Below are positions 9,052 to 55,851 of a DNA stretch of 64,000 bases, in pieces; positions within the stretch are counted from its first letter, which is position 1; each line of letters opens with the position of its first letter. The DNA lies in NCBI GenBank assembly GCA_965200745.1, contig CBDAUZ010000002.1:287847-351846 (forward strand), given 5' to 3'. The stretch comes from Alphaproteobacteria bacterium (lineage in GTDB: Bacteria; Pseudomonadota; Alphaproteobacteria; SP197). Made by a program: the position numbers and the translations under genes. Under the pieces are notes generated by a model. That model ran no database searches and was not told the origin of the DNA. It was given only the letters and a program-made list of their open reading frames with translations.

Positions 9052-10140
9052 ATGAATCTAGAACAGACGTTGAGAACGGTGACCACCCGCATTGCTTCGG
9101 GTGATCTAGCGAACGAGGCGCAGGTCAAACACGCCGTCGTATTGCCTGTCCTCCGCGAGTTGGGATGGGATGACAGTGATCCCAGCGTCCTCCGACCAGA
9201 GTATGCGTTAGATACCGGGTTTGTGGACTACGCGCTTCTGGACCGTGGTCGTCCGCTGATTTTCATTGAAGCCAAAAAGGTTGGGGCTTTGAGTGTGGCA
9301 GGCGAAGCGCAGCTCTTCTGGTACGCGACGAACAAGGGTGTACCTGTGCTCATCCTCACGGATGGGAATCTCTGGGACTTCTATCTCAGCATGGCGGCCG
9401 GCCCGCCGGATGAGCGCCGATTCTATCGAATGAATTTCGGGCTTGAACACAAACTTCCCGAGCACATGAATTTTCTTGAGGTGCATCTGCATAGGGAACG
9501 AGTAGTGTCAGGAGAGGCGAGAAAGAATTCCGAACAACTCCATGAAACTAATCGCAAGAAAGATCATGCGTACCGCATAATTACAACGTCCTGGAAGTTG
9601 CTATTGAGCGAACCCGATGAACTGCTCCGCGACTTGCTGATGGAAAAAGTTGAGAGTGAATGTGGGACACGACCGGAACAACAAGACATCGAAGAATTTC
9701 TGAAGGAGTACGCAAACGTGGTTGTCGAAACGCCCACCGCTCCTCGCGCAGTTCGTTCTCGAAAGAAGAGAGATGTGACTCCGGAACCGGCTGTAGGCCG
9801 GAGTGGGAAGTTGGTTGGATTCGTCTACAGGGGAGAAACCAACCATGTTGGAACGGCGATTGGCACCTTGGTTGCAGTTCTAACTGCACTCATGCAGGAT
9901 GACAGTGAATTTATTGAGAGGTTTTCTCACACAACTATCACAAGAGCTCGCAATTTGGTTGCGAAGGATCAGTCTAATCTCTATCGCGCCGCGCACCTTG
10001 CAGACATGGTGAAGAAATTGCCAAACGGGTGGTGGCTGGGATCCAATCTGAGCGAGGAACAAATTCGAAGATACATCGGGGTTGCGTGTGATGTGGCAGG
10101 GGTAAAGTTGGGTGTGCAATTGAAGCTGCTGGAAGAATAA
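9052..10140 (+). CDS. HsdR_N-type (type I restriction R-subunit N-terminal-like) PD-(D/E)XK nuclease domain protein with an uncharacterised C-terminal half
   Basis: N-terminus EAQVKHAVVLPVLRELGWD...VDYALLDRGRPLIFIEAKK matches the HSDR_N/HSDR_N_2 D...EXK core. GAGGAG RBS. GC about 52%, lower than the neighbours. Confidence 0.7.
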   Translation: MNLEQTLRTVTTRIASGDLANEAQVKHAVVLPVLRELGWDDSDPSVLRPEYALDTGFVDYALLDRGRPLIFIEAKKVGALSVAGEAQLFWYATNKGVPVLILTDGNLWDFYLSMAAGPPDERRFYRMNFGLEHKLPEHMNFLEVHLHRERVVSGEARKNSEQLHETNRKKDHAYRIITTSWKLLLSEPDELLRDLLMEKVESECGTRPEQQDIEEFLKEYANVVVETPTAPRAVRSRKKRDVTPEPAVGRSGKLVGFVYRGETNHVGTAIGTLVAVLTALMQDDSEFIERFSHTTITRARNLVAKDQSNLYRAAHLADMVKKLPNGWWLGSNLSEEQIRRYIGVACDVAGVKLGVQLKLLEE

Positions 10141-10423
10141 GCTGTTCTGTCGCGAAACTGGTGGCGTCGCGACGTCCTCTCGCAAAGTCGCCCCTCTACA
10201 GTGTTCGGGCAACCCGGAAGCCGAGGCTGTCGCTGCTGGAGCCTGACGCACCCGCGGCCCGGTTCGGGGAGCGCAGGTCCTCCACGAAGCTGCGCCAGGA
10301 GCCGACGCACACGACGCAGTAGCCACATTCCTCCCTTCCTGCCGCCTTCACCCTTGGCGGCGTCCAGTAACTTCCGTCATCCGGTGCTCCAAGGCAGCTT
10401 CCGTGCCAGCAGTCCGTGGTCTG

Positions 10424-10740
10424 TCACCTACCCATAGTCAACTGCGTCCATGACGAGGTGATTGGGCGTGGATTCCGGTGCATGTGTTCCCGATGGCTGG
10501 CGAAGAGCAGGAAGTCTCGCAGTCCCTTCCAGGCGAGTTGGGTAGCCATCATGGCGGCGAAGCGGCGGCTGTCGGCGTCGGACTCGACCTCCACCAGCGC
10601 GATCTTGCCCAAGGCCGCCAGAGTCAGGCGGCTCAGGCGTCCCGCCTTGACCGCGTCCGTGAATCGCTCCATCGTGGCCGTGTCGAACTGCCGCATGCCA
10701 ATCTGCGTGCGGCAGGGATAGACGGACAAATCCGGCGTGT
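10424..10740 (-). pseudogene. Possible remnant of a Tn3-family transposase C-terminus. Antisense to the upstream extension of the PAPS-reductase-like ORF.
   Basis: Minus-strand peptide RLSRLTLAALGKIALVEVESDADSRRFAAMMATQLAWKGLRDFLLFASH loosely resembles the Tn3 TnpA C-terminal region. Lies in a 600 bp very high-GC stretch between two genes. Confidence 0.25.
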
Positions 10741-12244
10741 CGACTATTGTCCTACTGACAGAGCCGGAGGACTGCCAGTGGCGAAACGGACGGGAAACAC
10801 ATTGGCTCAACAGACCGAACACTATACTCGCGAATCGACGAACCTTACAATTTCGGAAGTTGACACTAAGTTACCACAGCACGGTGCGTCAGGGTCGATC
10901 AAGAGATCCTGTTACGCTATTCGCGACGTTCCTAGGCTTGCGGTCTCGAAACGCCTGCGCATACCACCGCCGAATCATGATCCGAGCAAGGAGTACCGGT
11001 TCCGGTATCATGCGAAGAAGCACAGCTCCTTGCCCCATGTCGTCAAGTTCTCCGGAGGTCGCTCAAGCGGCATGCTGCTGTTCGTACTATTGGAGAACGG
11101 ACTGCTCGATGCGTCCCGAGGAGATGTCATCGTCTTCAACAATACCTCCGCTGAACACCCGGACACCTACCGGTTCGTACGTGATTGCATGCACACCGCT
11201 TACCGCTATGGAATCCCGTTCTTCCAATTGGAGTTCCAGACATACGAGGACGCCCGGCAGGGCGAGTGGACCCGGCTGCCGACGTACCGTCTCGTCAACG
11301 GTCGACCGAAATCTGCCACGAACACCGAGGGGTTCCACTGGCGAGGCGAGGTGTTCGAAGAGCTGCTTTCTTGGGCAGGCTACGTCCCGAACCAATTCAA
11401 TCGCATCTGCACGAAACACCTCAAGCTCGACGTAACCCGCAGCTTCTTGAAGGACTGGTTCGCGTCGAAGGCAACAATCCCGCGTCTCGGACACTACGGC
11501 AACCACTCTCGCATGGATCCCGATGCGGCCTTTCGGCGCCATCGGCAGAACCAGGGTGGAGTGCCTGAGGAAATCTTCCTACGAAAGCGCGCCTACGCCT
11601 GGAGCCGGCCTCATGTCCGGCCCGGACAACGCTACGATGACTTCCACCCGGGATGGCAGCCGTTCGAGAACAAGGCACTGAAGGGCAAAACGTTCGGTGA
11701 CAAGGCATGCTTCGGAAACGAAGGCGTGGAATACGTCGCTTTCATCGGGCTTAGGGGTGACGAGCCGCATCGGATCCGACGCGTGGAGGCGCGCAACGAT
11801 ACCGATGCCGGTTACGAAGGCGAGCACGTCTACATGCCGCTTAACGACATGGCGGTGACCCGAGACGACGTCAATGCGTTCTGGGAACGCCAAAGCTGGG
11901 ATCTGGAGCTCCCGGAGGACACGCGCCTTTCCAACTGCGTGTACTGCTTCCTGAAAGGAGCAGCGAACCTGGAAGCTATCCACGCCGAGCTGGACGGTGC
12001 CCGGGACTCCGAGGTGCCCGGATTCGGACCCCTTGCCAACACGCCATGCGATCTGCGTTGGTGGATGAGAATCGAAGCGTTGTACGGTCGGGACCTCCGC
12101 GCCGAGAAGCGCACGATCCGCAGAAAGGGCGCGACACACATCGGGTTCTTCGGAAACCACCCGTTTGCCTATGGAGACCTCGCCTCAGGGCGAAACCTCG
12201 GCGTACTGAGCGAGACGCTGCTGCCATGCGACTGCACAGAATGA
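10478..12244 (+). CDS. PAPS-reductase-family PP-loop ATP pyrophosphatase with a C-terminal Cys cluster (DndC/SspD-like). The true start is probably downstream of the ORF-track start, for example TTG at 11030 just before the PP-loop.
   Basis: PP-loop VVKFSGGRSSGMLLF, the CysH-like GLRGDEPHRIRR motif, and C-terminal NCVYCF...PCDLRWW...PCDC cysteines. The first 260 nt overlap the antisense remnant and have no internal ATG. Confidence 0.75.
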   Translation: MHVFPMAGEEQEVSQSLPGELGSHHGGEAAAVGVGLDLHQRDLAQGRQSQAAQASRLDRVRESLHRGRVELPHANLRAAGIDGQIRRVDYCPTDRAGGLPVAKRTGNTLAQQTEHYTRESTNLTISEVDTKLPQHGASGSIKRSCYAIRDVPRLAVSKRLRIPPPNHDPSKEYRFRYHAKKHSSLPHVVKFSGGRSSGMLLFVLLENGLLDASRGDVIVFNNTSAEHPDTYRFVRDCMHTAYRYGIPFFQLEFQTYEDARQGEWTRLPTYRLVNGRPKSATNTEGFHWRGEVFEELLSWAGYVPNQFNRICTKHLKLDVTRSFLKDWFASKATIPRLGHYGNHSRMDPDAAFRRHRQNQGGVPEEIFLRKRAYAWSRPHVRPGQRYDDFHPGWQPFENKALKGKTFGDKACFGNEGVEYVAFIGLRGDEPHRIRRVEARNDTDAGYEGEHVYMPLNDMAVTRDDVNAFWERQSWDLELPEDTRLSNCVYCFLKGAANLEAIHAELDGARDSEVPGFGPLANTPCDLRWWMRIEALYGRDLRAEKRTIRRKGATHIGFFGNHPFAYGDLASGRNLGVLSETLLPCDCTE

Positions 12245-13401
12245 CCGTCGCGCCTGTCTACCTGGACTATCAGGCCACAACCCCAATCGACCCCGCGGCG
12301 CACGAGGCCATGTTGCCGTTCCTGAGAGATCTATTCGGTAATCCCCATTCAAAAGATCACAGCTTCGGTTGGGAGGCGGCGCGGGCGATCAAGGACGCTC
12401 GAGCAAACGTTGCGGGTTTGATCAATGCAGACGACGACGAGATCGTGTTCACCTCCGGCGCCACCGAATCGTGCAACTTGGCCCTCCGAGGGGTCGCGAA
12501 TCGTTCGGGCAACGGCCGGCGAAATCGAATCGTCACGCTGGCGACAGAACACCCGGCTGTGCTCGAGACGGTTCTGGACCTGGAGCGATCGGGCTTCGAC
12601 GCTATCGTGCTTCCCGTCGAGGCGGACGGTCTCCTGAATCTCGCCCACCTCGACAAGGTGATCGATGAACGGACCCTCATCGTCTCGGCGATGGCTGCGA
12701 ACAACGAGATCGGCGTGCTCCAGCCGAGTGCCGAGATCGCGGCCCGATGTCACGACGCCGGCGCACTGTTCCACACCGATGCGACCCAAGCGGCGGGACG
12801 GATCCCGATCGATGTAGACGACTGGGGCGTCGACCTCCTGAGCTTCTCGGGCCACAAGGTGTATGGACCGAAGGGCGTGGGCGCTCTGTTCGTGCGCTCC
12901 GGCGTGCAACTAAAGCCACTCATTACAGGAGGACCGCAAGAACGGGGGCTTCGAGCGGGAACCCTGCCCCCGGCACTCATTGCCGGGTTCGGCGCTGCAT
13001 GTGAGGTCGCCGTAGCGAGACAGGAGCAAGATCGTGTACAGATGGAGACGCTCACGAAACAACTCCATACGGCTCTGCTCGACGGACATCCTACATTGCG
13101 TCTGTTCGGACACGTCGAGAAGCGACTCCCCGGGAGCCTTAATGTCGGGTTCCCCGGGCTCGCGGCCGAGGAGGTGATCCGCAACATATCCGACCATGTC
13201 GCCGTATCGAGCGGTTCGGCATGCGCATCCGCAACATCGGAGCCCTCTAGGGTGCTGCTGGCATTGGGGCTCGACCCGGAGGTCGCCGCCACCGGACTCC
13301 GGATCAGTCTGGGCCGCTTCACGACGGCGCAGGATGTCGACCGTGCAATCGCAGCACTATCCAAGCTTGCACCCCTCGCTCAACTCCATCACAGAGCTTG
13401 A
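12241..13401 (+). CDS. Cysteine desulfurase (class V aminotransferase, IscS/NifS/DndA/SspA-like)
   Basis: MTVAPVYLDYQATTPIDP start (ATGA overlap with the upstream stop), PLP-lysine motif SFSGHKVYGPKG, active-site SSGSACAS. Confidence 0.88.
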   Translation: MTVAPVYLDYQATTPIDPAAHEAMLPFLRDLFGNPHSKDHSFGWEAARAIKDARANVAGLINADDDEIVFTSGATESCNLALRGVANRSGNGRRNRIVTLATEHPAVLETVLDLERSGFDAIVLPVEADGLLNLAHLDKVIDERTLIVSAMAANNEIGVLQPSAEIAARCHDAGALFHTDATQAAGRIPIDVDDWGVDLLSFSGHKVYGPKGVGALFVRSGVQLKPLITGGPQERGLRAGTLPPALIAGFGAACEVAVARQEQDRVQMETLTKQLHTALLDGHPTLRLFGHVEKRLPGSLNVGFPGLAAEEVIRNISDHVAVSSGSACASATSEPSRVLLALGLDPEVAATGLRISLGRFTTAQDVDRAIAALSKLAPLAQLHHRA

Positions 13402-13406
13402 TCACC

Positions 13407-15425
13407 ATGCCAGGACATATCCCCAATGTTCCCGACTTACGTTTCGGCCCGGGAACGAGCGCAGGCTTTACCCCGGCCGGAGTGGCAGTCTTCGACGATC
13501 TTCGTCCTGCCGCGGTCGTGCGCGAGCTCATCCAGAACGGGTTGGACGCTGCTCGAAATGCGGAGGTCAGTACCGCCGTCGTCCGGTTTCGGCTGACCCG
13601 AGTGTCCCGGGACAAGGTCCCGGGGATTAAGAGCTACGCGAGCGCGTTCACCAAGGCGATGAAGACCCAGGAGGGCATGACCGGCGGACAGCTTAGCGGT
13701 CAGGCGAAACTCACAGCGGAGACGATCCGCAAGGCGCTTGCTCAAGACAAGATGGACGTGCTCTCAATCCTTGACAATGGGGTTGGTCTCAACAAGCAAC
13801 GTATGAACGCGCTCCTGAGCGACGGTGTTAGTGTCAAGGACGGCGCGGCGACTGGGACCTATGGGAACGGACACTCCACCGCCATCCCGGCATCGAACCT
13901 TCGCTATGTGCTATACGGCGGGCTCACCGAAGGTGGAGAACGAATCGGTGCAGGCCACGCCGTGCTCGCCTCTCACTACGAGTCGGGGGATCAACACCAG
14001 CGATCTGGAGACGGCTTCTACATCCGGGATTTTCAAGCAAGCCACAAGACGCTCTACGACTACGCGACCGGGCTCCAGCTTCCCCCGTTGATTGCGGAGG
14101 CACTTGACCTGATCGAAAAGGACACTCCACACGGCACCGCCGTCATCATCCCGGCCTTCAACCACTTTCTCGAAGAGGAAGAGAAGGATCTGTGGTCCAT
14201 GGTCTCGTACGCAGCATCGGCCAACTTCTTCGTCGCCGTCGAAAAGGGAGACCTGGTCGTCATCGTGGAGGACCATCGGTGGGGAGTGGACGAGTGCCCA
14301 CGGACCTTAGATCGGTCAAACCTCGCAGATGTGCTCGACCGACACCGGGACGAGCGACGAGCCAAGGCATTCCTCAACGGACAGCGGGCCTACGAAGCCC
14401 ACAAAATCTACCGATCCAGCGCACCACACCTTGTCGAGACCGATGCCGGCCCGATCGAGATTCGGCTCCGCGAAATCCCTGAAGGTAACACACGTGTCGA
14501 TCTGTGCCGTAACGGAATGTGGATTACCGACAACGTTCCCGTGCTGCGCAGGCAAGGCTTCGCAGATCAGGTCCCTTTCCACGCCATCCTCTCGCTCAAT
14601 GCACTAAAGGAAAGCAATCTGCACAACCTCATACGCCTCGCCGAAGGCCCATTGCACGATGCGATCAACCTCAAGCGGCTCCCAGCATCGCAGCGCAAGG
14701 CATGCCGGAGCGCACTCAAGGAAATCAAGCTATGGATCTTGGGAAACACGCAAGCGGCCAAGTCCGATGCGTATCTGTCAGACGACTTCCTGACTCTCGA
14801 CTTCGGCGACATGGACGGCAGCGGCAGAGCGGTGTTCGGCAATGCGTTCTTTGGCATGCCTGTGCCAATTCGGAAAAGTCCGACGCGCGAACGCCAGCTG
14901 TTCCCCGCCGAGGACGATCTGGAAGAAGGTGGCTCGTCCGGAAAGGGCAAGCGCACGAGGAGGGCAGTCCCGAAGACCGATCGTCGTCGGGAACGGCCAT
15001 CGCTGCCTGCGTTCTTCCAGGCCGCCTCGCGTCCGGCAGGGAAGAACCGGCGTCGGATCTGGATCGAGTGCGAGAAGAGCTGCGCCGACGCGCAGTTGCG
15101 TCTCGTCGTCGATGAGGCATTGGATGCAACATGTGAGCGTCCCGGACAGGACTCCTACATGCCTGCCGTGCTCGACAACGTCACAATCGACGCAAGGCCC
15201 GCCAGCGCCGAGGACCTCGTCCGCTGGAACGACCAAGTGATCGGCGTGCGGTTGGGCAACCTCCCCGAAGGTGCATCAGTCGAGGTCGAGACCGACTACC
15301 AGCTTCTCGGAGATTTCAGAAATCTTTCGGAGCCGTCGCTGCGGGTCGAAGTGTTCAGAACCGAGCAGGACCTCGAGACCGGCACAGGCGCCAGCGACCG
15401 CACAGGACAGGAGGCCGAGCGGTGA
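13407..15425 (+). CDS. GHKL (Bergerat-fold, MORC/MutL/Hsp90-type) ATPase with a basic C-terminal region
   Basis: N-box ELIQNGLDAARNA, G1 box ILDNGVGLN, G2 box GTYGNGHS. The start lies 6 nt after the desulfurase stop (or TTG at 13398 overlapping it). Confidence 0.8.
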   Translation: MPGHIPNVPDLRFGPGTSAGFTPAGVAVFDDLRPAAVVRELIQNGLDAARNAEVSTAVVRFRLTRVSRDKVPGIKSYASAFTKAMKTQEGMTGGQLSGQAKLTAETIRKALAQDKMDVLSILDNGVGLNKQRMNALLSDGVSVKDGAATGTYGNGHSTAIPASNLRYVLYGGLTEGGERIGAGHAVLASHYESGDQHQRSGDGFYIRDFQASHKTLYDYATGLQLPPLIAEALDLIEKDTPHGTAVIIPAFNHFLEEEEKDLWSMVSYAASANFFVAVEKGDLVVIVEDHRWGVDECPRTLDRSNLADVLDRHRDERRAKAFLNGQRAYEAHKIYRSSAPHLVETDAGPIEIRLREIPEGNTRVDLCRNGMWITDNVPVLRRQGFADQVPFHAILSLNALKESNLHNLIRLAEGPLHDAINLKRLPASQRKACRSALKEIKLWILGNTQAAKSDAYLSDDFLTLDFGDMDGSGRAVFGNAFFGMPVPIRKSPTRERQLFPAEDDLEEGGSSGKGKRTRRAVPKTDRRRERPSLPAFFQAASRPAGKNRRRIWIECEKSCADAQLRLVVDEALDATCERPGQDSYMPAVLDNVTIDARPASAEDLVRWNDQVIGVRLGNLPEGASVEVETDYQLLGDFRNLSEPSLRVEVFRTEQDLETGTGASDRTGQEAER

Positions 15426-16288
15426 GCGTCCCGTACACCGTCGAGGCAGTCGCTCCGGGACCCTCCAACGCGGTCCGCTCCCACGACCACCCCGTGCTCG
15501 AGTCAGGGAACCTTTCGTTTCCCGGTGGCCGTTATCTCTTGGACTTCCTTCCCCAAGAGAACCGCTCGTCATTTGTCATCACGCACCGGATCGAGGGCGC
15601 GGCCCTGATCAAGCGCATGCTGGAGGCTGGGCAGGCCCGATACGCCTGCGTAGTCTCTTCGCCGATCTCTTCGTATCGTCGTACGCATCTCTCGAGTGAG
15701 GCCCGGCACCAGGTGGGTTGGAACAGCGACGATCTCGGCGATCCACCGCTGTTCACGCCGATGATCCTCTGCGTCGAGCCGCAGACCATCACGATCGATG
15801 CGGATCGAGACGGCGTACATCGAATCTGGCACAAGCAGCGCATCGATGTACGGAAGGGCTCACGCTTGGCCCTCGGCAGCGTCTTCCAGCTCCAATCGTC
15901 GATTCTTCAGCTCCTGTCACTCGAAGAAGACACGCACCTTGGAGAAGGCCAGTTCTTTGTCGATGTGGGGGAAGAGCCCTTCCGCTTCCGTATCAAACTG
16001 AGCACGGAACTGCACAAATTCCTTCGCTTCCGGAAGGACCCCATCCGAAACCACATCATGACTCACATCGTGACGGCCTGCTTCGCACTGCTCCAGAAGG
16101 AGTACGCCAGCGATGACGGGGATACCGGGTGGCAATCGTTTGGTAACCTCCGGGCTCTGGCCGACCACCTCCAACACGAGGGGCATGTGGACTGGAGCGA
16201 TCAAGAATTTCATCCGGAGAGAGTCGCAACGGCGCTTTACCCGCACAAACTACCCACCGCCGATCTCGAGGCGGAGAGCGACGCATGA
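15422..16288 (+). CDS. Hypothetical protein (288 aa) with no recognisable motif, translationally coupled to the GHKL ATPase
   Basis: GTGA start/stop overlap with the upstream gene. Codon usage matches its neighbours. Confidence 0.6.
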   Translation: MSVPYTVEAVAPGPSNAVRSHDHPVLESGNLSFPGGRYLLDFLPQENRSSFVITHRIEGAALIKRMLEAGQARYACVVSSPISSYRRTHLSSEARHQVGWNSDDLGDPPLFTPMILCVEPQTITIDADRDGVHRIWHKQRIDVRKGSRLALGSVFQLQSSILQLLSLEEDTHLGEGQFFVDVGEEPFRFRIKLSTELHKFLRFRKDPIRNHIMTHIVTACFALLQKEYASDDGDTGWQSFGNLRALADHLQHEGHVDWSDQEFHPERVATALYPHKLPTADLEAESDA

Positions 16289-17148
16289 CATTCAAGGAGT
16301 TGAACGACGCGGAGTACGCCACGTTTCGAAAGGACCTACTTCGCGTCAAAGGCAGCGAACGTCAGACGAAGTTCCTCGGAATCGTCCGAAACAGCGACAC
16401 CTTCCTGGAGCACATGTCGGCCATCTCTACGGAAGGCGCAGTCGATGCAGCGCTCGCTGCCGAAGCGATGACGGAGAACGAGTACAAGGATCCACCGTCG
16501 AGTACCGAGCAAGTCCTGTACACCGCATGGTCTTCACTCACACCGGCGGTCGCTTGCCGCTCCACCTTCTGGGCGAACCTCACGATCGAACACATTCGGA
16601 CCGGCCGAATTCAATCCGCCTACTTGGCTGCCAATGGCGGCAATCTGGCCGGAGGTGCCGAGCGCATCGACTTCGTACTGGACGACACGTACGGTCAGGA
16701 GCCAAAGCAGATCGATAATTGCGTGCGTACCGTCCTGAGACGCCTCGGTGGCTTGCGAGAGGTGCGTGGCAACCGCTCGGTGTACGTCGACTGTCCATTC
16801 GCTCGCGCATGGTGGAGGGAACGCATCGCAACCCAAGCCGGAGGTGGCGACGAGGAAATGGCCTCCTGCGTGCGTACCATCCTCCGTACGAATCAGACGT
16901 ACTGGGAGAAGCTGATCGACCGAATCGTGTTCAGAAACTCGACATTCGGTTCGGAGAACATCCGTAGCGCGTTCGTGAGAGCACTCGCCCAGTGCGTGGA
17001 AACCAATCCATCATCGGAATTCACAAGCTCCACGGATTTGCAGCGGCTGTGCCGTCGCGTGACGACTTACCAGGGTGCCCGGGAACTCAGTATCTTGAGT
17101 CGCACCGAGCTGGATGACCTGATGAGGGCAGTGATCACCGAGGCATGA
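16285..17148 (+). CDS. Hypothetical protein (287 aa) with no recognisable motif. Last gene of the operon.
   Basis: ATGA overlap with the upstream gene. Coding-like composition. Confidence 0.6.
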   Translation: MTFKELNDAEYATFRKDLLRVKGSERQTKFLGIVRNSDTFLEHMSAISTEGAVDAALAAEAMTENEYKDPPSSTEQVLYTAWSSLTPAVACRSTFWANLTIEHIRTGRIQSAYLAANGGNLAGGAERIDFVLDDTYGQEPKQIDNCVRTVLRRLGGLREVRGNRSVYVDCPFARAWWRERIATQAGGGDEEMASCVRTILRTNQTYWEKLIDRIVFRNSTFGSENIRSAFVRALAQCVETNPSSEFTSSTDLQRLCRRVTTYQGARELSILSRTELDDLMRAVITEA

Positions 17149-17418
17149 CGCAAGCATACAGTCAAGAGCGCACCCTCATCACCCGAAGCCTTGCCAATGT
17201 CCGCCATGCTCCGCTCCTCCTTGTGCGTTGAGACAGGGTACAAGGAGATCGTGGCGGGACCCTAGGGCGCAAGCCACGAAACGGAGGTCGTCATTTGGCC
17301 GCTTACGACAACACAACGCAGTGCGGCTTCGGTCTCATGGCGGGAGGAGTTCGTCGCCGGTACATGGCCACCGGCGTTGATCACAGGGCCGGGCTGCGTT
17401 TGCATGCAGGCGTCGTCT

Positions 17419-18534
17419 TCACCGCCCGATCCATGCCGCGCCGTAGTCGTTGCGAGGGTTGCGGTAAATGCTGTGCGCATGGTCTGCCATGGTTGCCCCG
17501 ACGTCATACTGCGGTGAGTACTCGAGGACCAGAGTCGGCCCCGTTACCCGGAAATAGGCGAAGCCCAATGGCTCCTGCGGCCCCCACCATCCGAAACAGG
17601 TCTCGTCTATTCCCGCCCGGACAGCCGCCATCGCCGCTGCGTGGTCGTCATCGTTGATGAAGCCCAGGCGGGTATCGATCAACCCGATCAGCAGCGTCTT
17701 CTGCACGCCGGTGAGGTCGGCGCCCCTGATGCCTTCACACGGTACGAGCGTACCGTACTCGCCTGGACCAAGCAGGGCGTTGATGGCGACGTCGCCGAGA
17801 ATGGCGACCGCCTTCTGCTCGACCGTCAGGCTCCCCAGAAGCGCCTGGGCGGCCGCGGTTTCTTCTTCAGTGACAAAGACCTCTTCGCCATCGTAGCGAA
17901 CATGCAGCGGTTGGCCGCCCGTCAGCATCGGCGAAAAGGTGAGATCCGCGCCGTATATCGTCACATTGAAGGCGAGGTGATGTCCTCCGAACTGAAACAT
18001 CCAGGGCTGCGAAACGGACGGCTCGCCCAGAAACGCCACATAGAAGTGCTGCGATCCGTATCTGAGGAAAGGCACACCGGGCAACCCGTCTTCGGCGGCA
18101 AGCTGGTACTCCACGTTTCGAACGCCTCTTTCACTCAGGATTTCAGCGAGAAGCGCGTCCAGAAGCTCTCTCTGTTCCGCCGACATCTTGCCCAGTTTAA
18201 GGCCGCCGCGCGGGATCATTCCCTCCGGAAAGTTCGACCAGTTGGACCGTTGTACGTTGTCTGAAAACGCATAGGTCGCTGCCTGTTTCTGCGCCGGGTC
18301 CAGCGAAGCCAGGAAGGCGGCAGCGGCTTCCTTGATCGCGCTGGTCTTGGCGTCGGTTTCCCGGTCGACGAACGCGCTCTGCAGCGCAAGATCGACAGGG
18401 CCGACATCGACGCCGAAGAGCAGACCCGTCGTGAAACGCGGGAACAGGATCGAGGCGCCTACCAGCACGGTCAGGACAAGAACCGCTCCTGCCAGGACGA
18501 TGGAAATGCGCCTAATCCAGTTCTTGTGTTTCAT
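17419..18534 (-). CDS. Hypothetical membrane-anchored or secreted protein, possibly DUF3500 family
   Basis: N-terminal transmembrane/signal segment RRISIVLAGAVLVLTVLVGA, 371 aa. The family assignment comes from memory of overall sequence character only. Confidence 0.55.
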   Translation of the reverse strand: MKHKNWIRRISIVLAGAVLVLTVLVGASILFPRFTTGLLFGVDVGPVDLALQSAFVDRETDAKTSAIKEAAAAFLASLDPAQKQAATYAFSDNVQRSNWSNFPEGMIPRGGLKLGKMSAEQRELLDALLAEILSERGVRNVEYQLAAEDGLPGVPFLRYGSQHFYVAFLGEPSVSQPWMFQFGGHHLAFNVTIYGADLTFSPMLTGGQPLHVRYDGEEVFVTEEETAAAQALLGSLTVEQKAVAILGDVAINALLGPGEYGTLVPCEGIRGADLTGVQKTLLIGLIDTRLGFINDDDHAAAMAAVRAGIDETCFGWWGPQEPLGFAYFRVTGPTLVLEYSPQYDVGATMADHAHSIYRNPRNDYGAAWIGR

Positions 18535-19155
18535 GGCGTCGACCGTTTCATTGGCTTGTTGAACTGCTTCGGCATCCGGGCATCCCTGTCCGCCGGCGGC
18601 GCACCCTTCTCCGGAATTCCGCGTTCCGGCATACCCGACAGACGGCGAACCCCTTGCGGTCAGGATGCAGCGTCCCGATCGACATCGAGGCAGGGAGCCG
18701 GACCAGGACCCCTCAGCGGCCTTTCACTGCCGCTGGCGTCGAGCGGTACTTGCCTATGCCGTCGCGCATGGCCAGCATGATCGTCTCCACGCTGCTGCCA
18801 TCGCGACGTCTCCCGGCAGGTACGCTGGCGTACCACCAACCCTGTGTCAAGAAAGGGTAGGGCGACGCCGGTTCTAGGAGTACCGGCACTGCGCGGGTCT
18901 GTTTTCGCGAAGACAAGCGTGCTTCGGGCACAGCTGTGACCTGTTCCGGTACCCGGCGGGCCGGATAAGGTCAGGTCATGACAGCTGTTGTATCCAAGAA
19001 TAATCCGACCTGCAGGGGCCTGTTTACCGGATTATTTCGGACCGGATGTTTTTGAGAATCTGGTGTAGTGCGGGAAGGGTTTCCTGTTTCTCTCCAAGTA
19101 GTAGTATTGATTTGATCTTTTCGGCAGCCTGACCCGCGGGTTTTGGCGTCGTCAG

Positions 19156-19239
19156 GCATTCGGTTTCGAGGCCGCCGCCTGGTACTGGCACTTCGTTGAC
19201 GTGGTGTGGCTCTTCCTGTTCTTCCGCATCTACTGGTGG
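19156..19239 (+). pseudogene. Orphan C-terminal fragment of a haem-copper oxidase subunit III (cox3/cyoC-like), about 28 codons
   Basis: Translation [28 protein letters not shown] equals the highly conserved subunit III C-terminus. No upstream body, and no stop codon at the expected position. Confidence 0.7.
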
Positions 19240-19470
19240 GCGGCGGAAAGATTGCCCATCACTGACGGATGCCGTGCTGCCGTCGGGGCCAGGAGTCCAT
19301 CCGACTTGCAATCGGAAGCACACGTGTCGGGGTAGGTCGCCCGACAGGTGGCATCCTCCTGCCCACCGCCCTGTCCGATTTGTATGCCGTGCCCGAACAC
19401 ACCAGCCTTTTGCCGAGAATTGACAGAGATGCCAGCAAGCGGTGTTGCACAGGCCTTCAAGGACGCTATC

Positions 19471-19490
19471 ATGTACATTAACATGTACAT
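19471..19490. promoter_or_regulatory. Candidate antitoxin operator: two copies of the self-palindrome ATGTACAT separated by TAAC, 13 nt upstream of the antitoxin start
   Basis: ATGTACATTAACATGTACAT immediately precedes the RBS GAGGTAGGG and the ATG at 19504. Confidence 0.5.
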
Positions 19491-19503
19491 TTGAGGTAGG
19501 GAC

Positions 19504-19785
19504 ATGGGAGAACAGCATTCGATCGCAGATGCGCGGCGCAACTTGCCGCAGCTAATCCGTCAAGTGGAACGAGGCGAACCGGTGCAACTTACCCGGCGCG
19601 GAAAGCCAGTCGCGGTGCTGCTCGGAAATCAGGCCTTCGAGCGGATTGTTGCCGGTCGACGCAGCTTTACAGAGGCCTATGCAGAGTTCGCGAAGGCGGT
19701 CGATCTTGCGGAACTTGGTATCGATCCGGCGGAATTTCTAGACGGCGTCCGGGATCGGGATCCAGGCCGCGACGTGTGGATATGA
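19504..19785 (+). CDS. Type II antitoxin, Phd/YefM family
   Basis: 93 aa with Phd-like N-terminus (IADARRNLPQLIRQVERGEPVQLTRRGKPVAVLL). ATGA-type overlap with the downstream toxin region. Confidence 0.8.
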   Translation: MGEQHSIADARRNLPQLIRQVERGEPVQLTRRGKPVAVLLGNQAFERIVAGRRSFTEAYAEFAKAVDLAELGIDPAEFLDGVRDRDPGRDVWI

Positions 19786-19788
19786 TCG

Positions 19789-20199
19789 GTGCGGTATCTG
19801 CTCGACAGCAAAATCATCTCCGAGCCGATGCGCCCGGCACCGGCGCCCGGAATCATCAGGGGTTTGCGTGAGCACAGTGATGAGATCGTCATCGCGGCAC
19901 CTGTCTGGCACGAGTTGCGTTTCGGTTGCGCTCGTCTCCCACCCTCAAGGCGCCGGAATGCGATCGAGCGATACCTTGCGGAGGTGGTGCTTGCGACCTT
20001 TCCCGTGCTCGACTACGACCGGCATGCTGCGGACTGGCATGCCCGGGAGCGAGCACGGCTCAGCGCCGCTGGCGAGACACCGCCATTCGTCGACGGTCAG
20101 ATTGCCGCGATCGCCGTTGTCAACGAACTGATCATTGTAACCTCGAACATCCGGGACTTTGAGAGATTCCAGGGAGTGCAGATGCAAAGCTGGTCCTGA
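19789..20199 (+). CDS. vapC: Type II toxin VapC (PIN-domain ribonuclease)
   Basis: GTG start. N-terminus RYLLDSKIISE with the PIN acidic residues, C-terminus IVTSNIRDFERF typical of VapC. Confidence 0.8.
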   Translation: MRYLLDSKIISEPMRPAPAPGIIRGLREHSDEIVIAAPVWHELRFGCARLPPSRRRNAIERYLAEVVLATFPVLDYDRHAADWHARERARLSAAGETPPFVDGQIAAIAVVNELIIVTSNIRDFERFQGVQMQSWS

Positions 20200-20217
20200 C
20201 GCTGGCGAAGCCTGCTG

Positions 20218-20917
20218 TCAGGCCATGTAGCCCCCGCAATTGACGGACAGCGTCGATCCTGAGATGAAACCCGCCTCCTCGGCGGCGAGGAAGACGACGC
20301 AGCGGGCTACCTCTCCGGGTTTGCCGCTGCACCCGACGGGAATACCGGAGTCGATCCGCTCCATCACGGCGTCGCTGATATGGGCGATGAGGTCGGAACG
20401 GATATAGCCCGGGCAGATGTAGTTGACCCTGATGCCCTTGCTTGCGTTCTCGAGGTCCAGCGATTTCGTGAAGCCGAGCATGCCGACCTTGGCGGCGGCA
20501 TAGTTCGCGACGCCGAGCATGCCGGAATGCGCGTTGATCGAACTGATGTTGATGATGCGCCCGAAGCGGCGGCTGGGCATGCCGCCTAGAACCGCATGCG
20601 CCATGTTGAAGCAGGACCCGAGATTGACGTCGATCACAGTCTGCCAGTTCTCCGCATTCGTCTTGTGAAGGAATCCGTCCCGGGAAATCCCGGCGTTGTT
20701 CACAAGGATGTCCACAGCGCCGAGCTTCTCCTCGACCTCGGCGACGCCCTGGGCACAGGCCGCATGATCGGCGACGTCCCAGCGGAAGACCGGGATCCCC
20801 GTCCATTCCCTGAACGCTTCCGCCGCTTCGGTGTTGTCGGCGTAGCGGGCGGCCACCTGGTAGCCGGCGTCGCGGCAAGCCGTGGCTTCCGCCGGTTACG
20901 AGTACGACGCGGGTCAT
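20218..20917 (-). pseudogene. phaB: Acetoacetyl-CoA reductase-like SDR (phaB-like). A roughly 35 nt deletion plus frameshift removes the glycine-rich cofactor-binding loop.
   Basis: [10 protein letters not shown] is in one frame (from 20917), then [19 protein letters not shown]...NNAGI...NISS...YAAAK...PGYI continues in another frame. The expected SRGIGAAI segment is missing. Confidence 0.7.
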
Positions 20918-20935
20918 GTGCTGTGCGCTTCCTTG

Positions 20936-21403
<468 letters not shown>

Positions 21404-52428: not shown

Positions 52429-54692
52429 CAGAACCCGGTCCCGACACTGAACCTGAACGTATCGGTTTCGTCATAGTCTTTCTTCTGGACCGGCCACGCA
52501 AAATCGAATTGCATCGGTCCAATAGGCGAAATGTAGGAAAACCCGACGCCGACAGATCCGCGTGGTGTTGACTCGTCAACGATATCCGCACCCGTTACGT
52601 CAACGTTGAAGAGACTCCCCCAATCCGTGAATACCCGTCCGCGCAGGCCAAGTTCACGGGGAAGACCCAGCGGAACATTGAGTGAAGCAGTCGCGTTCCA
52701 GTACACGTTTCCGCCCAGAACATCGCCTGTCCGGGTATCCCTGGGACCAACGCCGGAGAACGAAAAACCGCGCAGTCTGCTCCCGCCGATGAAGAAACGG
52801 TCCGCGATACCGACATCTTCTCCCAGACCGTCGATAATGCCCGCATCGAGCCGAAGGTCGAGAATCCAGTCACCGCCAAACGGATAATGATAGGTGCCGA
52901 TCATCCGTGTGCTCGCATAGCGGGTATCGCCTCCCAGACCTGCCACTTCGAGGTAATGACGCAGCATGTAACCTTCGGTCGGAAATATGACATCATCGCG
53001 TTTGTCGTAGATCAGCCATTGCGACACTGCTGATACATGCGTCTGCCCTTCCTGGCTCGCGATGAACGGTGACGCTGTGGCCTGAACGTTGAGAATATCT
53101 CTGAACTGGTAGAGATATGCCACTGTGTGACGGAGGTCCCGCGCGAGCTGATAACCCAAACGGACACTCCCGCCGATGACTTCCTGTTCAAACGACGACG
53201 TGGACGTCCTGTCCAGTCGACGCGCAACGATATTCACACCTGCTGCGAGATCCCTGTCCAGAAAGTACGGTTCGACAACATCGAGTTCGAAGGTTCGCGA
53301 TGTATTGGACAATTCCAGATCAAACGCCAGGGTCTGACCATTGCCAAGAAGGTTCCGTTCCGAGAGGGAGATGGTGATCAAACCCTTGTTGAGGGAGGAA
53401 TATCCGATACCGAAAGACAACTGTCCGGTCGATTTCTCCTCGACCGCAATCGTGATGATGACAAGATCGTCGCTGCTGCCAGGTTCGGTCGACACGGAGA
53501 CGGATGTGAAATAGTCGAGCGCACGTATCTGTCGCTCAGATCTTTGCATGCGCGCGAAATTGAGCGCATCGCCTTCAACGATGAGTACCTCGCGGCGAAT
53601 GACTTCATCCGTCGTCCGGACGTTGCCGATTATGTCTATGCGTTCGACATAAACGGCCGGACCACGTACAACCATGAACTGCAGATCAACGATCTGCGCT
53701 TCCGGGTCGCGGATGACATCGTAGTTGATCTCGACGAAGCTGATCCCGCGTTGACCGAAATCAACCGTCATGTCGAGGATATCGTCCTCGATCAGGTCAG
53801 CGTCGTACCAATCACCGGTATCAAAACTGATGAGATCAAGGACATCGTCGGGAGCAACATCACCGAGTTCGGACGTGACCGAAATTTCGCCCACTTCATA
53901 ACGCGGGCCTTCATCGATCGAAAAAGTCACAAAAAATTCTTCAAGTCCCGGCGTGAATTCGGCAACCGCTGCTACAATTTCGACATCCACGTATCCTTCG
54001 GACAGATAGAAACGCCGCAGGAGTTCACGGTCGAATGCCAGCCTGTCAGGGTCATAGGAATCAACAGTGGAGAGGAACCGATACCAGGCCGATTCCTTTG
54101 TCACGATCTCATCGCGCAGCGTGCTGTCTGAGAAGCCCGCGTTGCCAACAAAATTGATTTCGCGGACGATCGTTGCATCGCCTTCCGAAATCTCAAAGAC
54201 CAGGTCCACCCTGTTCTGATCCTGCAGGATGATTTTCGGTTCGACGGTTGCGTTGAAACGCCCCGTACGCCGGTAGATCTCGATCAGCCGCTGCACGTCG
54301 TCGCGAACCTTGGCCGGCGTGTAGATCAATCTGGGTTTGAGGGAGATTTCGCCTTCAAGGTCCACGGAATCCAGAAGCCGGTTTCCCTCGAATGCAATCT
54401 GGTTGATCACGGGATTTTCGACAACTGTGACAATCAGCGCCGTCCCTTCGCGCCGGACCGAGACATCGGCAAAGAAACCTGTTTCGAAAAGGCGCTTGAT
54501 GGAATCGTCAACCAGCTCGATGTCAATCGGGTCGCCGGGGTTGAGTTCCATGTAGCTGCGTATTGTCTCGACCTCGACCCGCTGATTGCCTTCAACGATG
54601 ATTTCACTCACGGTCGTCTGTGCATGTGCCGATCCGACGAACACAGCGACAAACCAGATTGAAGCGAGAAATTTGTTGTGAAATACCTTCAT
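52428..54692 (-). CDS. bamA: Outer membrane protein assembly factor BamA
   Basis: POTRA repeats and C-terminal beta-barrel ending in F. Probable start at the Met preceding the signal peptide (the ORF track extends to 54734). Confidence 0.92.
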   Translation of the reverse strand: MKVFHNKFLASIWFVAVFVGSAHAQTTVSEIIVEGNQRVEVETIRSYMELNPGDPIDIELVDDSIKRLFETGFFADVSVRREGTALIVTVVENPVINQIAFEGNRLLDSVDLEGEISLKPRLIYTPAKVRDDVQRLIEIYRRTGRFNATVEPKIILQDQNRVDLVFEISEGDATIVREINFVGNAGFSDSTLRDEIVTKESAWYRFLSTVDSYDPDRLAFDRELLRRFYLSEGYVDVEIVAAVAEFTPGLEEFFVTFSIDEGPRYEVGEISVTSELGDVAPDDVLDLISFDTGDWYDADLIEDDILDMTVDFGQRGISFVEINYDVIRDPEAQIVDLQFMVVRGPAVYVERIDIIGNVRTTDEVIRREVLIVEGDALNFARMQRSERQIRALDYFTSVSVSTEPGSSDDLVIITIAVEEKSTGQLSFGIGYSSLNKGLITISLSERNLLGNGQTLAFDLELSNTSRTFELDVVEPYFLDRDLAAGVNIVARRLDRTSTSSFEQEVIGGSVRLGYQLARDLRHTVAYLYQFRDILNVQATASPFIASQEGQTHVSAVSQWLIYDKRDDVIFPTEGYMLRHYLEVAGLGGDTRYASTRMIGTYHYPFGGDWILDLRLDAGIIDGLGEDVGIADRFFIGGSRLRGFSFSGVGPRDTRTGDVLGGNVYWNATASLNVPLGLPRELGLRGRVFTDWGSLFNVDVTGADIVDESTPRGSVGVGFSYISPIGPMQFDFAWPVQKKDYDETDTFRFSVGTGF

Positions 54693-54714
54693 CAGTCTCC
54701 CCGAGCACAGCCTC

Positions 54715-55830: not shown

Positions 55831-55851
55831 AGCACAGGTCCCGGGAGATAT

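Follow-up and report, generated by a model that had tools for sequence, protein, structure and literature searches.

A probable DNA-phosphorothioating defence cassette in which predicted sulfur enzymes are joined by a GHKL ATPase and two coupled partner proteins

Introduction

SspD and BrxP are phosphorothioate-forming enzymes, and the gene architectures so far described for DNA phosphorothioation (PT) number, to our knowledge, three: Dnd, Ssp, and BREX type 4. In every PT system that we know of (Dnd, Ssp, BREX4), an ATPase and a DNA-binding partner are required beside the PAPS-like enzyme. In BREX type 4, BrxP (a PAPS reductase-DUF4007 protein) and a cysteine desulfurase stand in place of the PglX methyltransferase, and this swap of a methyltransferase for PT enzymes, which sets BREX type 4 apart from type 1 (PMC12914056, PMC12839542), is also documented for the DndDE core (PMC10853773). 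PbeABCD and SspE depend on PT by experiment (PMC6459918; PMC8092258). In the restriction trios SspFGH and DndFGH, F is a Walker A NTPase and H is an FtsK/HerA-like translocase (PMC8092258). Pbe modules pair with methyltransferases too (PMC6459918), so an adjacent Pbe module is no proof of PT. In prokaryotes, GHKL ATPases of the MORC/paraMORC type are encoded next to SFII helicases, methylases, and nucleases in modification-based defence operons, and they have been proposed to loop DNA and remodel the complex in an ATP-driven manner (Iyer, Abhiman & Aravind 2008, PMC2292703). The literature searched (papers available without subscription) makes no mention of DUF6339 or of the PADLOC candidate system PDC-M33, and never combines PAPS reductase, GHKL, and defence; nor does GHKL appear in any paper found to match at least three of four topics, phosphorothioate and cysteine desulfurase among them.

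Results

Organization of the operon

The window, meaning the whole 64-kb stretch of DNA analysed, contains five co-directional genes together with the following neighbours:

9052-10140, + strand: HSDR_N / PD-(D/E)xK-like protein, directly upstream of the operon (Pfam HSDR_N 4.1e-8)
10778-12244, + strand: PP-loop ATP pyrophosphatase of the PAPS-reductase superfamily, SspD/BrxP/DndC-like, a predicted sulfur-inserting enzyme (PAPS-like protein)
12241-13401, + strand: cysteine desulfurase, DndA/SspA/IscS-like, a predicted sulfur donor
13407-15425, + strand: GHKL (Bergerat-fold) ATPase, a relative of PDC-M33A, MORC/MutL/Hsp90-like
15422-16288, + strand: ORF5, the 'B' subunit (GTG start, 288 aa, no Pfam family)
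16285-17148, + strand: ORF6, the 'C' subunit, DUF6339 (ATG start, 287 aa)
17419-18534, strand opposite to the operon: DUF3500 gene, next after ORF6

Translational coupling spans all five operon genes. The PAPS-like gene, whose longest ORF runs from 10478, likely starts at GTG 10778, where GGAGGA serves as ribosome-binding site, and its stop is overlapped by the desulfurase ATG at 12241 (ATGA). The GHKL start (13407; alternative TTG 13398) abuts the desulfurase stop. The GHKL gene and ORF5 share a stop/start overlap in GTGA (15422-15425), and ORF5 and ORF6 share one in ATGA (16285-16288), with AGGAGG / GGAG lying ~10 nt 5' of the ORF5 and ORF6 starts. Since the DUF3500 gene is on the opposite strand, the operon ends with ORF5 and ORF6; the overlaps, the exact coordinates, and this next gene agree with the original prediction that two coupled ORFs close the operon. 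The prediction that both are genuine coding sequences also holds, given their many homologues (which begin at the same position) and dN/dS values of ~0.10-0.24 against four relatives, indicative of purifying selection. The 4-nt ORF5/ORF6 overlap is retained in all three of the four relatives in which the ORF6 start was located. A promoter and terminator scan of the operon gave signals no higher than the shuffled expectation. The window flanks consist of metabolic genes, G+C is elevated across the island, and neither a tRNA nor an integrase was found in the island flanks. The HSDR_N-like protein is a possible local nuclease partner; no homologue of its gene adjoins any related cassette, and its membership of the system is doubtful.

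The predicted sulfur enzymes

The PAPS-like protein of the window matches PADLOC SspD partially (3.6e-8), BrxP at 6e-3, and Pfam PAPS_reduct weakly. Across its family, SspD is matched by 23 of 23 members scanned (best 5e-10), BrxP by 13, and DndC by a single one; SspD and BrxP are the best matches, rather than TtcA, ThiI, or MnmA. The SGGxxS PP-loop is invariant in the family, as are six cysteines, including a CxxC and a C-terminal CxC. A profile search of PDB sequences returned no match, and Pfam, NCBIfam, and PADLOC scans revealed no DNA-binding domain, with ~200 residues lying outside the PAPS_reduct domain. The desulfurase matches Pfam Aminotran_5 (1e-82), PADLOC DndA (5.5e-141) and SspA (5.6e-141), and NCBIfam DNA_S_dndA (1e-116, under that model's curated cut-off).

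Comparison with described systems

With its SspA-like desulfurase and SspD-like PP-loop enzyme (a partial similarity, ~1e-8), the operon resembles SspABCD, and 18 related loci have an SspE-like gene after the cassette. However, SspB (a DUF4007 nickase) and SspC (a DndD-like ABC ATPase) are missing, and the GHKL protein, ORF5, and ORF6 are found there instead; SspB, SspC, DUF4007, and ABC ATPase models gave no match to the six operon proteins searched (PADLOC, Pfam, E≤1). The likeness to DndABCDE lies in the DndA-like desulfurase and in the Pbe-like module next to 31 related loci, whereas DndB (DGQHR), DndD (ABC ATPase), and DndE (double RHH) go unmatched, and DndC is matched only by the one PAPS-like family member mentioned above (1/23). 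BREX type 4 offers the same logic, a conserved multi-protein scaffold whose DNA methyltransferase has given way to a PAPS-reductase-like enzyme and a desulfurase, yet the operon carries neither BrxA, BrxB, BrxC, BrxL, or PglZ nor a DUF4007 fusion, and its BrxP match is weak in the window. The MORC/paraMORC survey (PMC2292703), in turn, describes neither B or C/DUF6339 partners nor a link to PAPS reductases or sulfur. An identity of ORF5 and ORF6 with SspFGH or DndFGH components was rejected on the lack of a Walker A motif and of PADLOC matches.

The GHKL-ORF5-ORF6 trio as a distant relative of PDC-M33

The GHKL protein contains Bergerat motifs I-III (ExxxNxxD, DxGxG, GxxGxG), of which E40, N44, D47, D123, G125, G127, G150, G153, and G155 are invariant in 24 sequences. 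It matches PADLOC PDC-M33A over residues 19-448 (E 9.1e-35), and its profile finds only weak PDB matches (Hsp90, MutL, MORC3). The GHKL-ORF5-ORF6 trio is distantly related to PDC-M33 A-B-C, which it resembles in three contiguous, co-directional genes in A-B-C order and of similar sizes, although it is very divergent and its B and C matches are marginal. ORF5 matches the PDC-M33B HMM over its N-terminal 140 residues only (E 3.4e-4), but PDC-M33B is also matched by 42 of 48 distant ORF5 family representatives (best 1e-12), and hhalign of ORF5 against four canonical PDC-M33B sequences gave 85% probability (E 6.6e-6, 109 columns, residues 42-158); on these alignments the N-terminal domains of the two are homologous. 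For ORF6 the PDC-M33C match is 3.4e-3, none of 13 diverse ORF6 members matches PDC-M33C at 1e-3, and hhalign of ORF6 to four canonical PDC-M33C sequences fell short of significance. Both are nevertheless DUF6339 proteins by Pfam and NCBI annotation, with a GNR...AR(A/Y)WW motif in common.

On Ligilactobacillus salivarius pMP1046A, which carries canonical PDC-M33 (52556-56145; A 7.7e-154, B 7.9e-60, C 4e-46), the genes next after the trio are tightly coupled to it and encode a 900-aa N6 DNA methyltransferase, a helicase, and a GIY-YIG nuclease; a PAPS-like gene is lacking there. A GHKL-B-C trio also occurs on plasmids of Arthrobacter, Deinococcus, and Lactococcus, in these cases without an intact adjacent modifier, and the Arthrobacter trio neighbours Shedu and a dcm-vsr R-M system. 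Where canonical loci have a modifier it is a DNA methyltransferase, and none of them pairs a PAPS-like gene with a desulfurase as seen here. As PDC-M33 is itself a prediction, it provides no mechanism to borrow.

ORF5 and ORF6

ORF5 has 351 homologues at E≤1e-3, and 382 clusters at 50% identity among 1.84 billion representatives. Its AF2 model (pLDDT 80.9) shows a beta-rich N-terminal domain (about residues 20-155) and a helical C-terminal domain. ORF6 has at least 812 homologues at E≤1e-3, most of them with a precomputed PF19866 match, and itself matches Pfam DUF6339 (PF19866) over profile positions 69-173 of 175 at 37.1 bits against a gathering cut-off of 23.2 (E 3.4e-9). Its AF2 model is all-alpha (pLDDT 82.9, pTM 0.83). 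Residues 151-180 form a near-invariant core, and an Arg-rich motif, RxxLRRxGG...RGxxSV..DCPxARAWWR, is invariant in clades with ~22-46% identity. An Fe-S or Zn site in ORF6 was considered and rejected because, of the cysteines invariant among close homologues, C170 alone is kept in distant clades.

The original prediction had called these two proteins the most novel sequence of the window, a description that does not wholly stand, as ORF6 passes the DUF6339 gathering score and the trio is distantly related to PDC-M33. In remote-homology comparisons of the kind proposed with it, profile searches of PDB sequences gave no match for either protein, a fold search with the ORF5 model returned nothing from the PDB at E≤1e-3, and the ORF6 model resembled nothing in the PDB (E≤1e-3) or BFVD; no recognised DNA-binding or nuclease fold emerged from these searches. 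Regular expressions confirmed that both lack Walker A and DGQHR motifs, and the reported absence of HNH agrees with the lack of an HNH family match; a PD-(D/E)xK pattern sought in ORF5 was likewise not found, and neither protein has a recognisable catalytic motif. An IMG/VR scan was empty, NCBIfam gave no match, and tblastn of both proteins against 72,556 plasmids returned nothing.

Conservation of the cassette

Synteny was counted over the 65 related loci that span 12 kb or more. In 64 of them ORF5 and ORF6 lie beside the GHKL gene and a PAPS-like gene, so that the proposed co-occurrence check with the GHKL gene is passed, and the cysteine desulfurase is also present in 57. This linkage persists in clades down to ~25% identity and survives variants of gene order (e.g., GHKL-5-6-PAPS-CysD in L041 and L078). 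An apparent 'GHKL-less' variant, L064, was discarded on finding the GHKL gene split by an IS1595 element. ORF5 and ORF6 are fused at full length in four proteins (P0276, P0286, P0291, P0381), and the ORF5 N-terminal domain is fused to ORF6 in three (P0372, P0388, P0395). Pairwise identities correlate at 0.94 (GHKL-ORF5), 0.95 (GHKL-ORF6), and 0.91 (ORF5-ORF6) within the trio, and at a lower 0.72-0.75 between the trio and the PAPS-like gene. Mean pairwise identity is 0.47 for GHKL, 0.49 for ORF5, 0.52 for ORF6, and 0.59-0.60 for the enzymes.

A Pbe-like or GmrSD/SspE-like module adjoins the cassette in 49 of 64 loci. The Pbe-like module is adjacent in 31 (PADLOC PbeA 3.6e-92, PbeC 4.6e-46, and a PbeD-sized ORF), and a DUF262 plus His-Me (DUF1524-type) GmrSD/SspE-like gene, which matches the SspE model only at 1e-3, lies 3' of the cassette in 18. 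In L060 and L061, the GmrSD-like gene sits between the PAPS/CysD genes and the trio. Neither module is present in the 64-kb window, where only the PD-(D/E)xK-like gene is found upstream. The cassette is patchily distributed over many phyla, consistent with horizontal transfer. It is almost confined to marine-sponge symbionts, where it occurs in at least six phyla and is spread by gene transfer.

Discussion

The evidence favours ORF5 and ORF6 as adaptor or DNA-engaging subunits of a GHKL ATPase complex. In the reading preferred here, to which a probability of about 0.5 is given, they would be subunits B and C of a DNA-engaging GHKL trio serving an exchangeable modifier, with the five genes writing a phosphorothioate-type mark. 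ORF5 and ORF6 would most likely form a heteromer, without a recognisable catalytic motif of its own, bound to the GHKL ATPase, and the three proteins an ATP-driven scaffold that engages DNA, for which the invariant Arg-rich motif of ORF6 is a candidate nucleic-acid contact. This scaffold would cooperate with an exchangeable DNA-modifying enzyme. Because the modifier predicted in this clade is an SspD/BrxP/DndC-like PP-loop sulfurtransferase supplied by its own cysteine desulfurase, the five genes would place a phosphorothioate-type sulfur mark on DNA, the trio substituting for DndD/DndE or SspC/SspB, and the mark would then be read by the variable neighbour modules (Pbe-like or GmrSD/SspE-like). 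In favour of this reading are the strict linkage, the ORF5-ORF6 fusions, the co-evolution of the trio, the coupling of all five genes, the matches of both enzymes to PT proteins, the adjacent Pbe-like and GmrSD/SspE-like modules, the methyltransferase of canonical PDC-M33, and the need of PT systems for an ATPase and a DNA-binding partner. Counting against it are the trios without an intact modifier, the lower correlation with the PAPS-like gene, the gene order of L060 and L061, the lack of a recognised DNA-binding or nuclease fold in ORF5 and ORF6, and the non-significant alignment of ORF6 to PDC-M33C. Phosphorothioation is assigned to the cassette through guilt by association. The data establish that the genes are real, strictly syntenic, co-evolving, and in places naturally fused, together with their family relationships and partner modules; we infer a physical complex, DNA as its substrate, phosphorothioate chemistry, and a need for ORF5 and ORF6 in modification rather than restriction. 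We regard the five genes as a hitherto undescribed defence cassette that probably phosphorothioates DNA. More tentatively, they may represent a fourth, mechanistically distinct DNA-sulfur writer, in which a GHKL clamp ATPase of the MORC/MutL type and a new two-protein partner supplant the ABC-ATPase/DndE or SspC/SspB apparatus, and GHKL-B-C may be a general 'modifier-agnostic' platform for a methyltransferase or a sulfurtransferase; the sulfur mark could even be one other than the known phosphorothioate.

A less likely but still serious alternative is that the trio works autonomously, as a defence effector or a module of restriction type (PDC-M33 proper), and that in it ORF5 or ORF6 is a novel effector or nuclease, while the PAPS-like protein and CysD alone write a protective or licensing mark, by analogy with dndCDE plus dndFGH or sspBCD plus sspFGH. 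In PADLOC these three genes by themselves make up a candidate system, the occurrence of the trio without an intact modifier in the plasmid defence islands of Arthrobacter, Deinococcus, and Lactococcus suggests that it may defend autonomously instead of only targeting modification, co-evolution is tighter inside the trio than with the PAPS-like gene, the GmrSD-like insertion between the halves in L060 and L061 hints at two modules, and other defence systems use GHKL domains to control their nucleases (e.g., VcSduA/paraMORC3; PMC12137116, PMC2292703). However, the trio is never apart from the PAPS-like gene in the ~64 loci while restriction-type partners vary or are absent, a pattern of Dnd/Ssp modification cores that argues against an autonomous restriction module. 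Moreover, the searches of GHKL, ORF5, and ORF6 revealed neither a nuclease motif nor a nuclease fold, a trio standing alone without a modifier speaks against a classical attacker of unmodified DNA, and the Pfam, NCBIfam, and PADLOC scans give the PAPS-like protein no recognised DNA-binding domain.

That ORF5 and/or ORF6 are sequence-specificity subunits picking the target motif, comparable to HsdS or the variable DNA-binding face of DndE, is quite improbable. No other cassette protein has an identified DNA-recognition domain, and ORF5 is among the more variable proteins, but a hypervariable block of the target-recognition-domain type was found in neither protein. Entropy is evenly spread, the ORF6 core at 151-180 is conserved, and the most variable segments belong to the GHKL protein (191-240, 291-320, and 491-530), so that the specificity role originally suggested gains no positive support. 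For the sensor role suggested with it, the evidence speaks neither for nor against. Housekeeping thiolation of tRNA or a cofactor, with ORF5 and ORF6 as accessories unrelated to DNA, is very improbable: PP-loop enzymes and IscS-type desulfurases do thiolate tRNA as pairs, the flanks are metabolic, and an integrase is absent, but the patchy distribution consistent with horizontal transfer, the raised G+C, the DNA-directed defence modules adjoining 49 of 64 loci, the homologous trio accompanying a DNA methyltransferase in defence islands, and the affinity of the PAPS-like gene to SspD/BrxP rather than to TtcA, ThiI, or MnmA all speak against it.

In sponge metagenomes, phosphorothioation genes are enriched but 'functionally incomplete' (PMC5099237), and the distribution of the cassette among sponge symbionts may explain part of this enrichment. 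If the preferred reading of a GHKL trio serving a sulfurtransferase is true, DndA/SspD-type chemistry would have been kept while the whole targeting apparatus was replaced by a GHKL ATPase and two proteins of unknown fold, an independent solution to bringing a sulfur enzyme to sparse target sites. It would also provide a testable role for PDC-M33, a bioinformatic candidate, and for DUF6339.

The terminal genes and their operon

ORF5 and ORF6 close a run of five closely packed plus-strand genes at ~10.8-17.1 kb of the window. Together with a nuclease-like neighbour, these are:

9052-10140, + strand: HSDR_N / PD-(D/E)xK-like protein, 362 aa (D...EAK segment, Pfam 4e-8)
10778-12244, + strand: PAPS-reductase-superfamily PP-loop protein (likely start GTG 10778, with a GGAGGA ribosome-binding site)
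12241-13401, + strand: cysteine desulfurase
13407-15425, + strand: GHKL-type ATPase, 675 aa
15422-16288, + strand: ORF5, 288 aa
16285-17148, + strand: ORF6, 287 aa

Read 5' to 3', the genes of the five-gene run meet at ATGA, across a gap of 6 nt or less, at GTGA and at a second ATGA, and Shine-Dalgarno-like sequences lie upstream of the ORF5 and ORF6 starts. The coordinates and start-stop overlaps (GTGA, ATGA) that the original prediction gave for the two genes are exact, and its placement of the pair at the operon end also holds, because the following gene (DUF3500) lies on the opposite strand. The PP-loop protein (hereafter PAPS-like) retains the SGGxxS loop, and six of its cysteines are invariant; amongst 23 PAPS-like members scanned against PADLOC, all match SspD, 13 match BrxP, and one matches DndC, to our knowledge the three known phosphorothioate-forming enzymes. 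The cysteine desulfurase matches DndA and SspA models at 1e-141. The 675-aa GHKL protein preserves motifs I-III and matches subunit A of the PADLOC candidate defence system PDC-M33 (9e-35), and ORF5 and ORF6 give marginal PADLOC matches to PDC-M33B and PDC-M33C, respectively. The last three genes are referred to here as the trio, and all five as the cassette.

Judged from comparison with their homologues, ORF5 and ORF6 are real genes. A collection of 5.8 billion proteins contains 351 homologues of ORF5 and at least 812 of ORF6 (E<=1e-3), labelled 'hypothetical protein' by NCBI, with full-length identities from 100% down to ~55% among the matches listed. Exhaustive HMM searching of 1.84 billion cluster representatives returns 382 ORF5-family clusters, and the family is therefore real but rare. 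Comparison with four relatives gives dN/dS values of ~0.10-0.24, and the 4-nt ORF5/ORF6 overlap is kept in all three of those with a located ORF6 start.

ORF5 matches no family in Pfam or NCBIfam scans; its AF2 model (pLDDT 80.9) has two domains, beta-rich at the N terminus (~residues 20-155) and helical at the C terminus. ORF6 scores above the Pfam gathering threshold for DUF6339, is modelled as all-alpha (pLDDT 82.9, pTM 0.83), and carries a core motif, RxxLRRxGG...RGxxSV..DCPxARAWWR, that is near-invariant even across clades with ~22-46% identity. The absence of Walker, DGQHR and HNH motifs noticed at first reading is borne out: a motif check finds neither Walker A nor DGQxR in either protein, and family scans return no HNH match. 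The PD-(D/E)xK pattern was likewise not found in ORF5 by motif check, and neither protein contains a hypervariable block.

Conservation of the cassette and its partners

Scans of genomes and metagenomes recovered 56 loci, all in metagenome-assembled genomes (MAGs), and 18 further loci, respectively. The genome loci span Gamma- and Alphaproteobacteria, Gemmatimonadota, Acidobacteriota, Chloroflexota, Latescibacterota, and Binatia. The co-occurrence with the GHKL gene that the original prediction proposed to check is nearly complete, as the PAPS-like gene, GHKL, ORF5 and ORF6 are found together in 64 of the 65 loci of at least 12 kb (the single exception is a spurious weak match), with the desulfurase additionally present in 57. 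The usual order is PAPS-CysD-GHKL-5-6 (CysD being the desulfurase), rearranged to GHKL-5-6-PAPS-CysD in two loci (L041 and L078), and the desulfurase is missing from a second, diverged cassette clade. Gene fusion is a classic sign of two proteins working as one unit, and seven diverged cluster representatives are natural ORF5-ORF6 fusions (both proteins are full-length in four; in three, ORF6 is fused to the N-terminal domain of ORF5). We interpret ORF5 and ORF6 as subunits B and C of a trio centred on the GHKL protein.

Several loci show further variation. A Longimicrobiales MAG (L006/L022, 12481-19981) carries a diverged second cassette, PAPS-GHKL-B-C without desulfurase, in tandem after the primary one; more B/C-like ORFs also follow its primary cassette, and extra copies occur in L047 and L056. 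An IS1595 transposase that interrupts GHKL in a second-type cassette (L064, 5295-9804) and apparent desulfurase frameshifts in L014, L039 and L042 are possible signs of inactivation. A DndB-family (PF14072) gene (L063, 18936-20300, minus strand) lies 8 kb downstream of another second-type cassette, one lacking any other dnd gene.

Candidate readers of a modification adjoin many cassettes. A Pbe-like module, comprising a ~650-aa HTH protein, PbeA (3.6e-92), PbeC (4.6e-46) and a PbeD-sized ORF, is found in 31 loci. In another 18, a ~610-aa DUF262 protein has FQRxxVW, LDGQQR and C-terminal His-Me-type motifs, the GmrSD/SspE architecture. Both PbeABCD (PMC6459918) and SspE (PMC8092258) depend on phosphorothioate marks. 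Neither partner is found in ~15 loci, including the window, where the HSDR_N-like gene at 9052-10140, immediately upstream of the cassette, is the sole partner-type neighbour; none of ~70 related cassettes adjoins a homologue, and the protein may be either a nuclease partner peculiar to this locus or unconnected with the cassette. Within the Pbe-like modules, the PbeA-like helicase is split into two consecutive ORFs (~505 + 224 aa; L008 13697-15906, and L067, L068, L069, L074 and L083) in every locus examined, which suggests a genuine pair of genes or recoding, not an artefact of sequencing. The conserved leading protein (L008 11739-13694, L064 11679-13511), ~610-650 aa long and bearing Sigma70_r4 / RNA_pol_A_CTD-like HTH segments, would be an undescribed extra component, since it matches no PADLOC Pbe model.

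Relation to PDC-M33 and proposed role

With the window GHKL protein as query, distant relatives are found on plasmids of cultured bacteria. On Ligilactobacillus salivarius pMP1046A the trio is canonical PDC-M33 (model matches: A 7.7e-154, B 7.9e-60, C 4e-46), its C protein being annotated DUF6339. Genes for a 900-aa N6 DNA methyltransferase, a DEAD-box helicase and a GIY-YIG nuclease come next in this closely coupled operon. With 841-aa and 187-aa proteins the operon reaches eight genes (NZ_CP007647.1 52556-65249), and the three-gene PADLOC definition of PDC-M33 may therefore be incomplete. A truncated methyltransferase remnant follows the trio in Lactococcus lactis, the trio stands by itself within defence islands in Arthrobacter and Deinococcus, and no PAPS-like gene is present at any of these plasmid loci. 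The ORF5 N-terminal domain resembles canonical PDC-M33B (hhalign probability 85%, E 6.6e-6), which is also matched by 42 of 48 distant ORF5-family members. ORF6 shares DUF6339 membership and a GNR...AR(A/Y)WW motif with canonical PDC-M33C, although their hhalign comparison, based on four canonical sequences, is not significant.

The modifier differs between the two settings, being a methyltransferase on the Firmicute plasmid and a sulfurtransferase plus desulfurase in the window. BREX shows such an exchange, with PglX in type 1 and, in type 4, BrxP plus a desulfurase, a pair that produces phosphorothioate (PMC12914056, PMC12839542), and the DndD-DndE core is another documented case of modifier exchange (PMC10853773). 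For restriction-modification operons, GHKL ATPases have been proposed as ATP-driven engines of DNA looping and complex remodelling (PMC2292703), and in defence systems, VcSduA among them, ATPases of this type control effectors (PMC12137116). The searchable literature, with subscription-only papers outside the search, contains no paper naming DUF6339 or PDC-M33, uniting PAPS reductase, GHKL and defence, or pairing GHKL with PAPS reductase, phosphorothioate or cysteine desulfurase terms (at least three together).

We favour, at a probability of roughly one half, a scaffold model in which the trio engages DNA and brings or licenses the sulfur enzyme. ORF5 and ORF6 would form a heteromer binding the GHKL dimer and DNA, and with the GHKL protein would bring or license the SspD-like enzyme at target sites; the trio would stand in for DndD/DndE or SspC/SspB, and Pbe-like or GmrSD-like modules, at the loci that have them, would read the mark. 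In this model we infer that conserved partners are needed for modification, and that a sulfur enzyme implies phosphorothioate in DNA. A less probable but serious alternative is that the trio is an autonomous effector, PDC-M33 proper, and that the PAPS-like and desulfurase genes alone form the modification module. Stand-alone plasmid trios point that way, as do the looser co-evolution of the trio with the PAPS-like gene (pairwise-identity correlations of 0.72-0.75, versus 0.91-0.95 inside GHKL/ORF5/ORF6) and the GmrSD-like gene lying between the two cassette halves in L060 and L061; yet across the cassette loci the trio never occurs apart from the PAPS-like gene, its proteins gave no sign of a nuclease, and most loci have a separate restriction-type partner. 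Less likely than either are ORF5/ORF6 as a pure specificity subunit, which is improbable, and the cassette as a housekeeping thiolation pathway, which is very improbable indeed. The parts are of known kinds (phosphorothioate chemistry, restriction-modification GHKL ATPases and a listed candidate system); what is undescribed is their combination and the part played by ORF5 and ORF6.

Distribution and mobility

No cassette copy is found in IMG/VR viral contigs, and no sequenced plasmid matches ORF5 or ORF6. The window contains no tRNA gene, and ten flanking ORFs scanned (~4.9-25.6 kb) include no integrase family. The flanks are metabolic (Rieske dioxygenase, IGPS, DUF3500, ABC transporter), and G+C is 0.58-0.63 at ~10000-21000 versus 0.53-0.57 in the surroundings, a pattern consistent with an inserted island that carries no recognisable mobility genes. 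The MAGs with genome matches are uncultured throughout, several bearing sponge-derived names (e.g., Poriferihabitaceae, Porifericomitales). Mediterranean sponge metagenomes, LXNJ (Petrosia), LXNI (Sarcotragus) and MKWU (Aplysina), supply 14 of the 18 metagenome matches (within L067-L083), and the seawater control of the same study (LXNH) supplies none. From this distribution, the cassette therefore looks like a gene set moving horizontally within sponge microbiomes.
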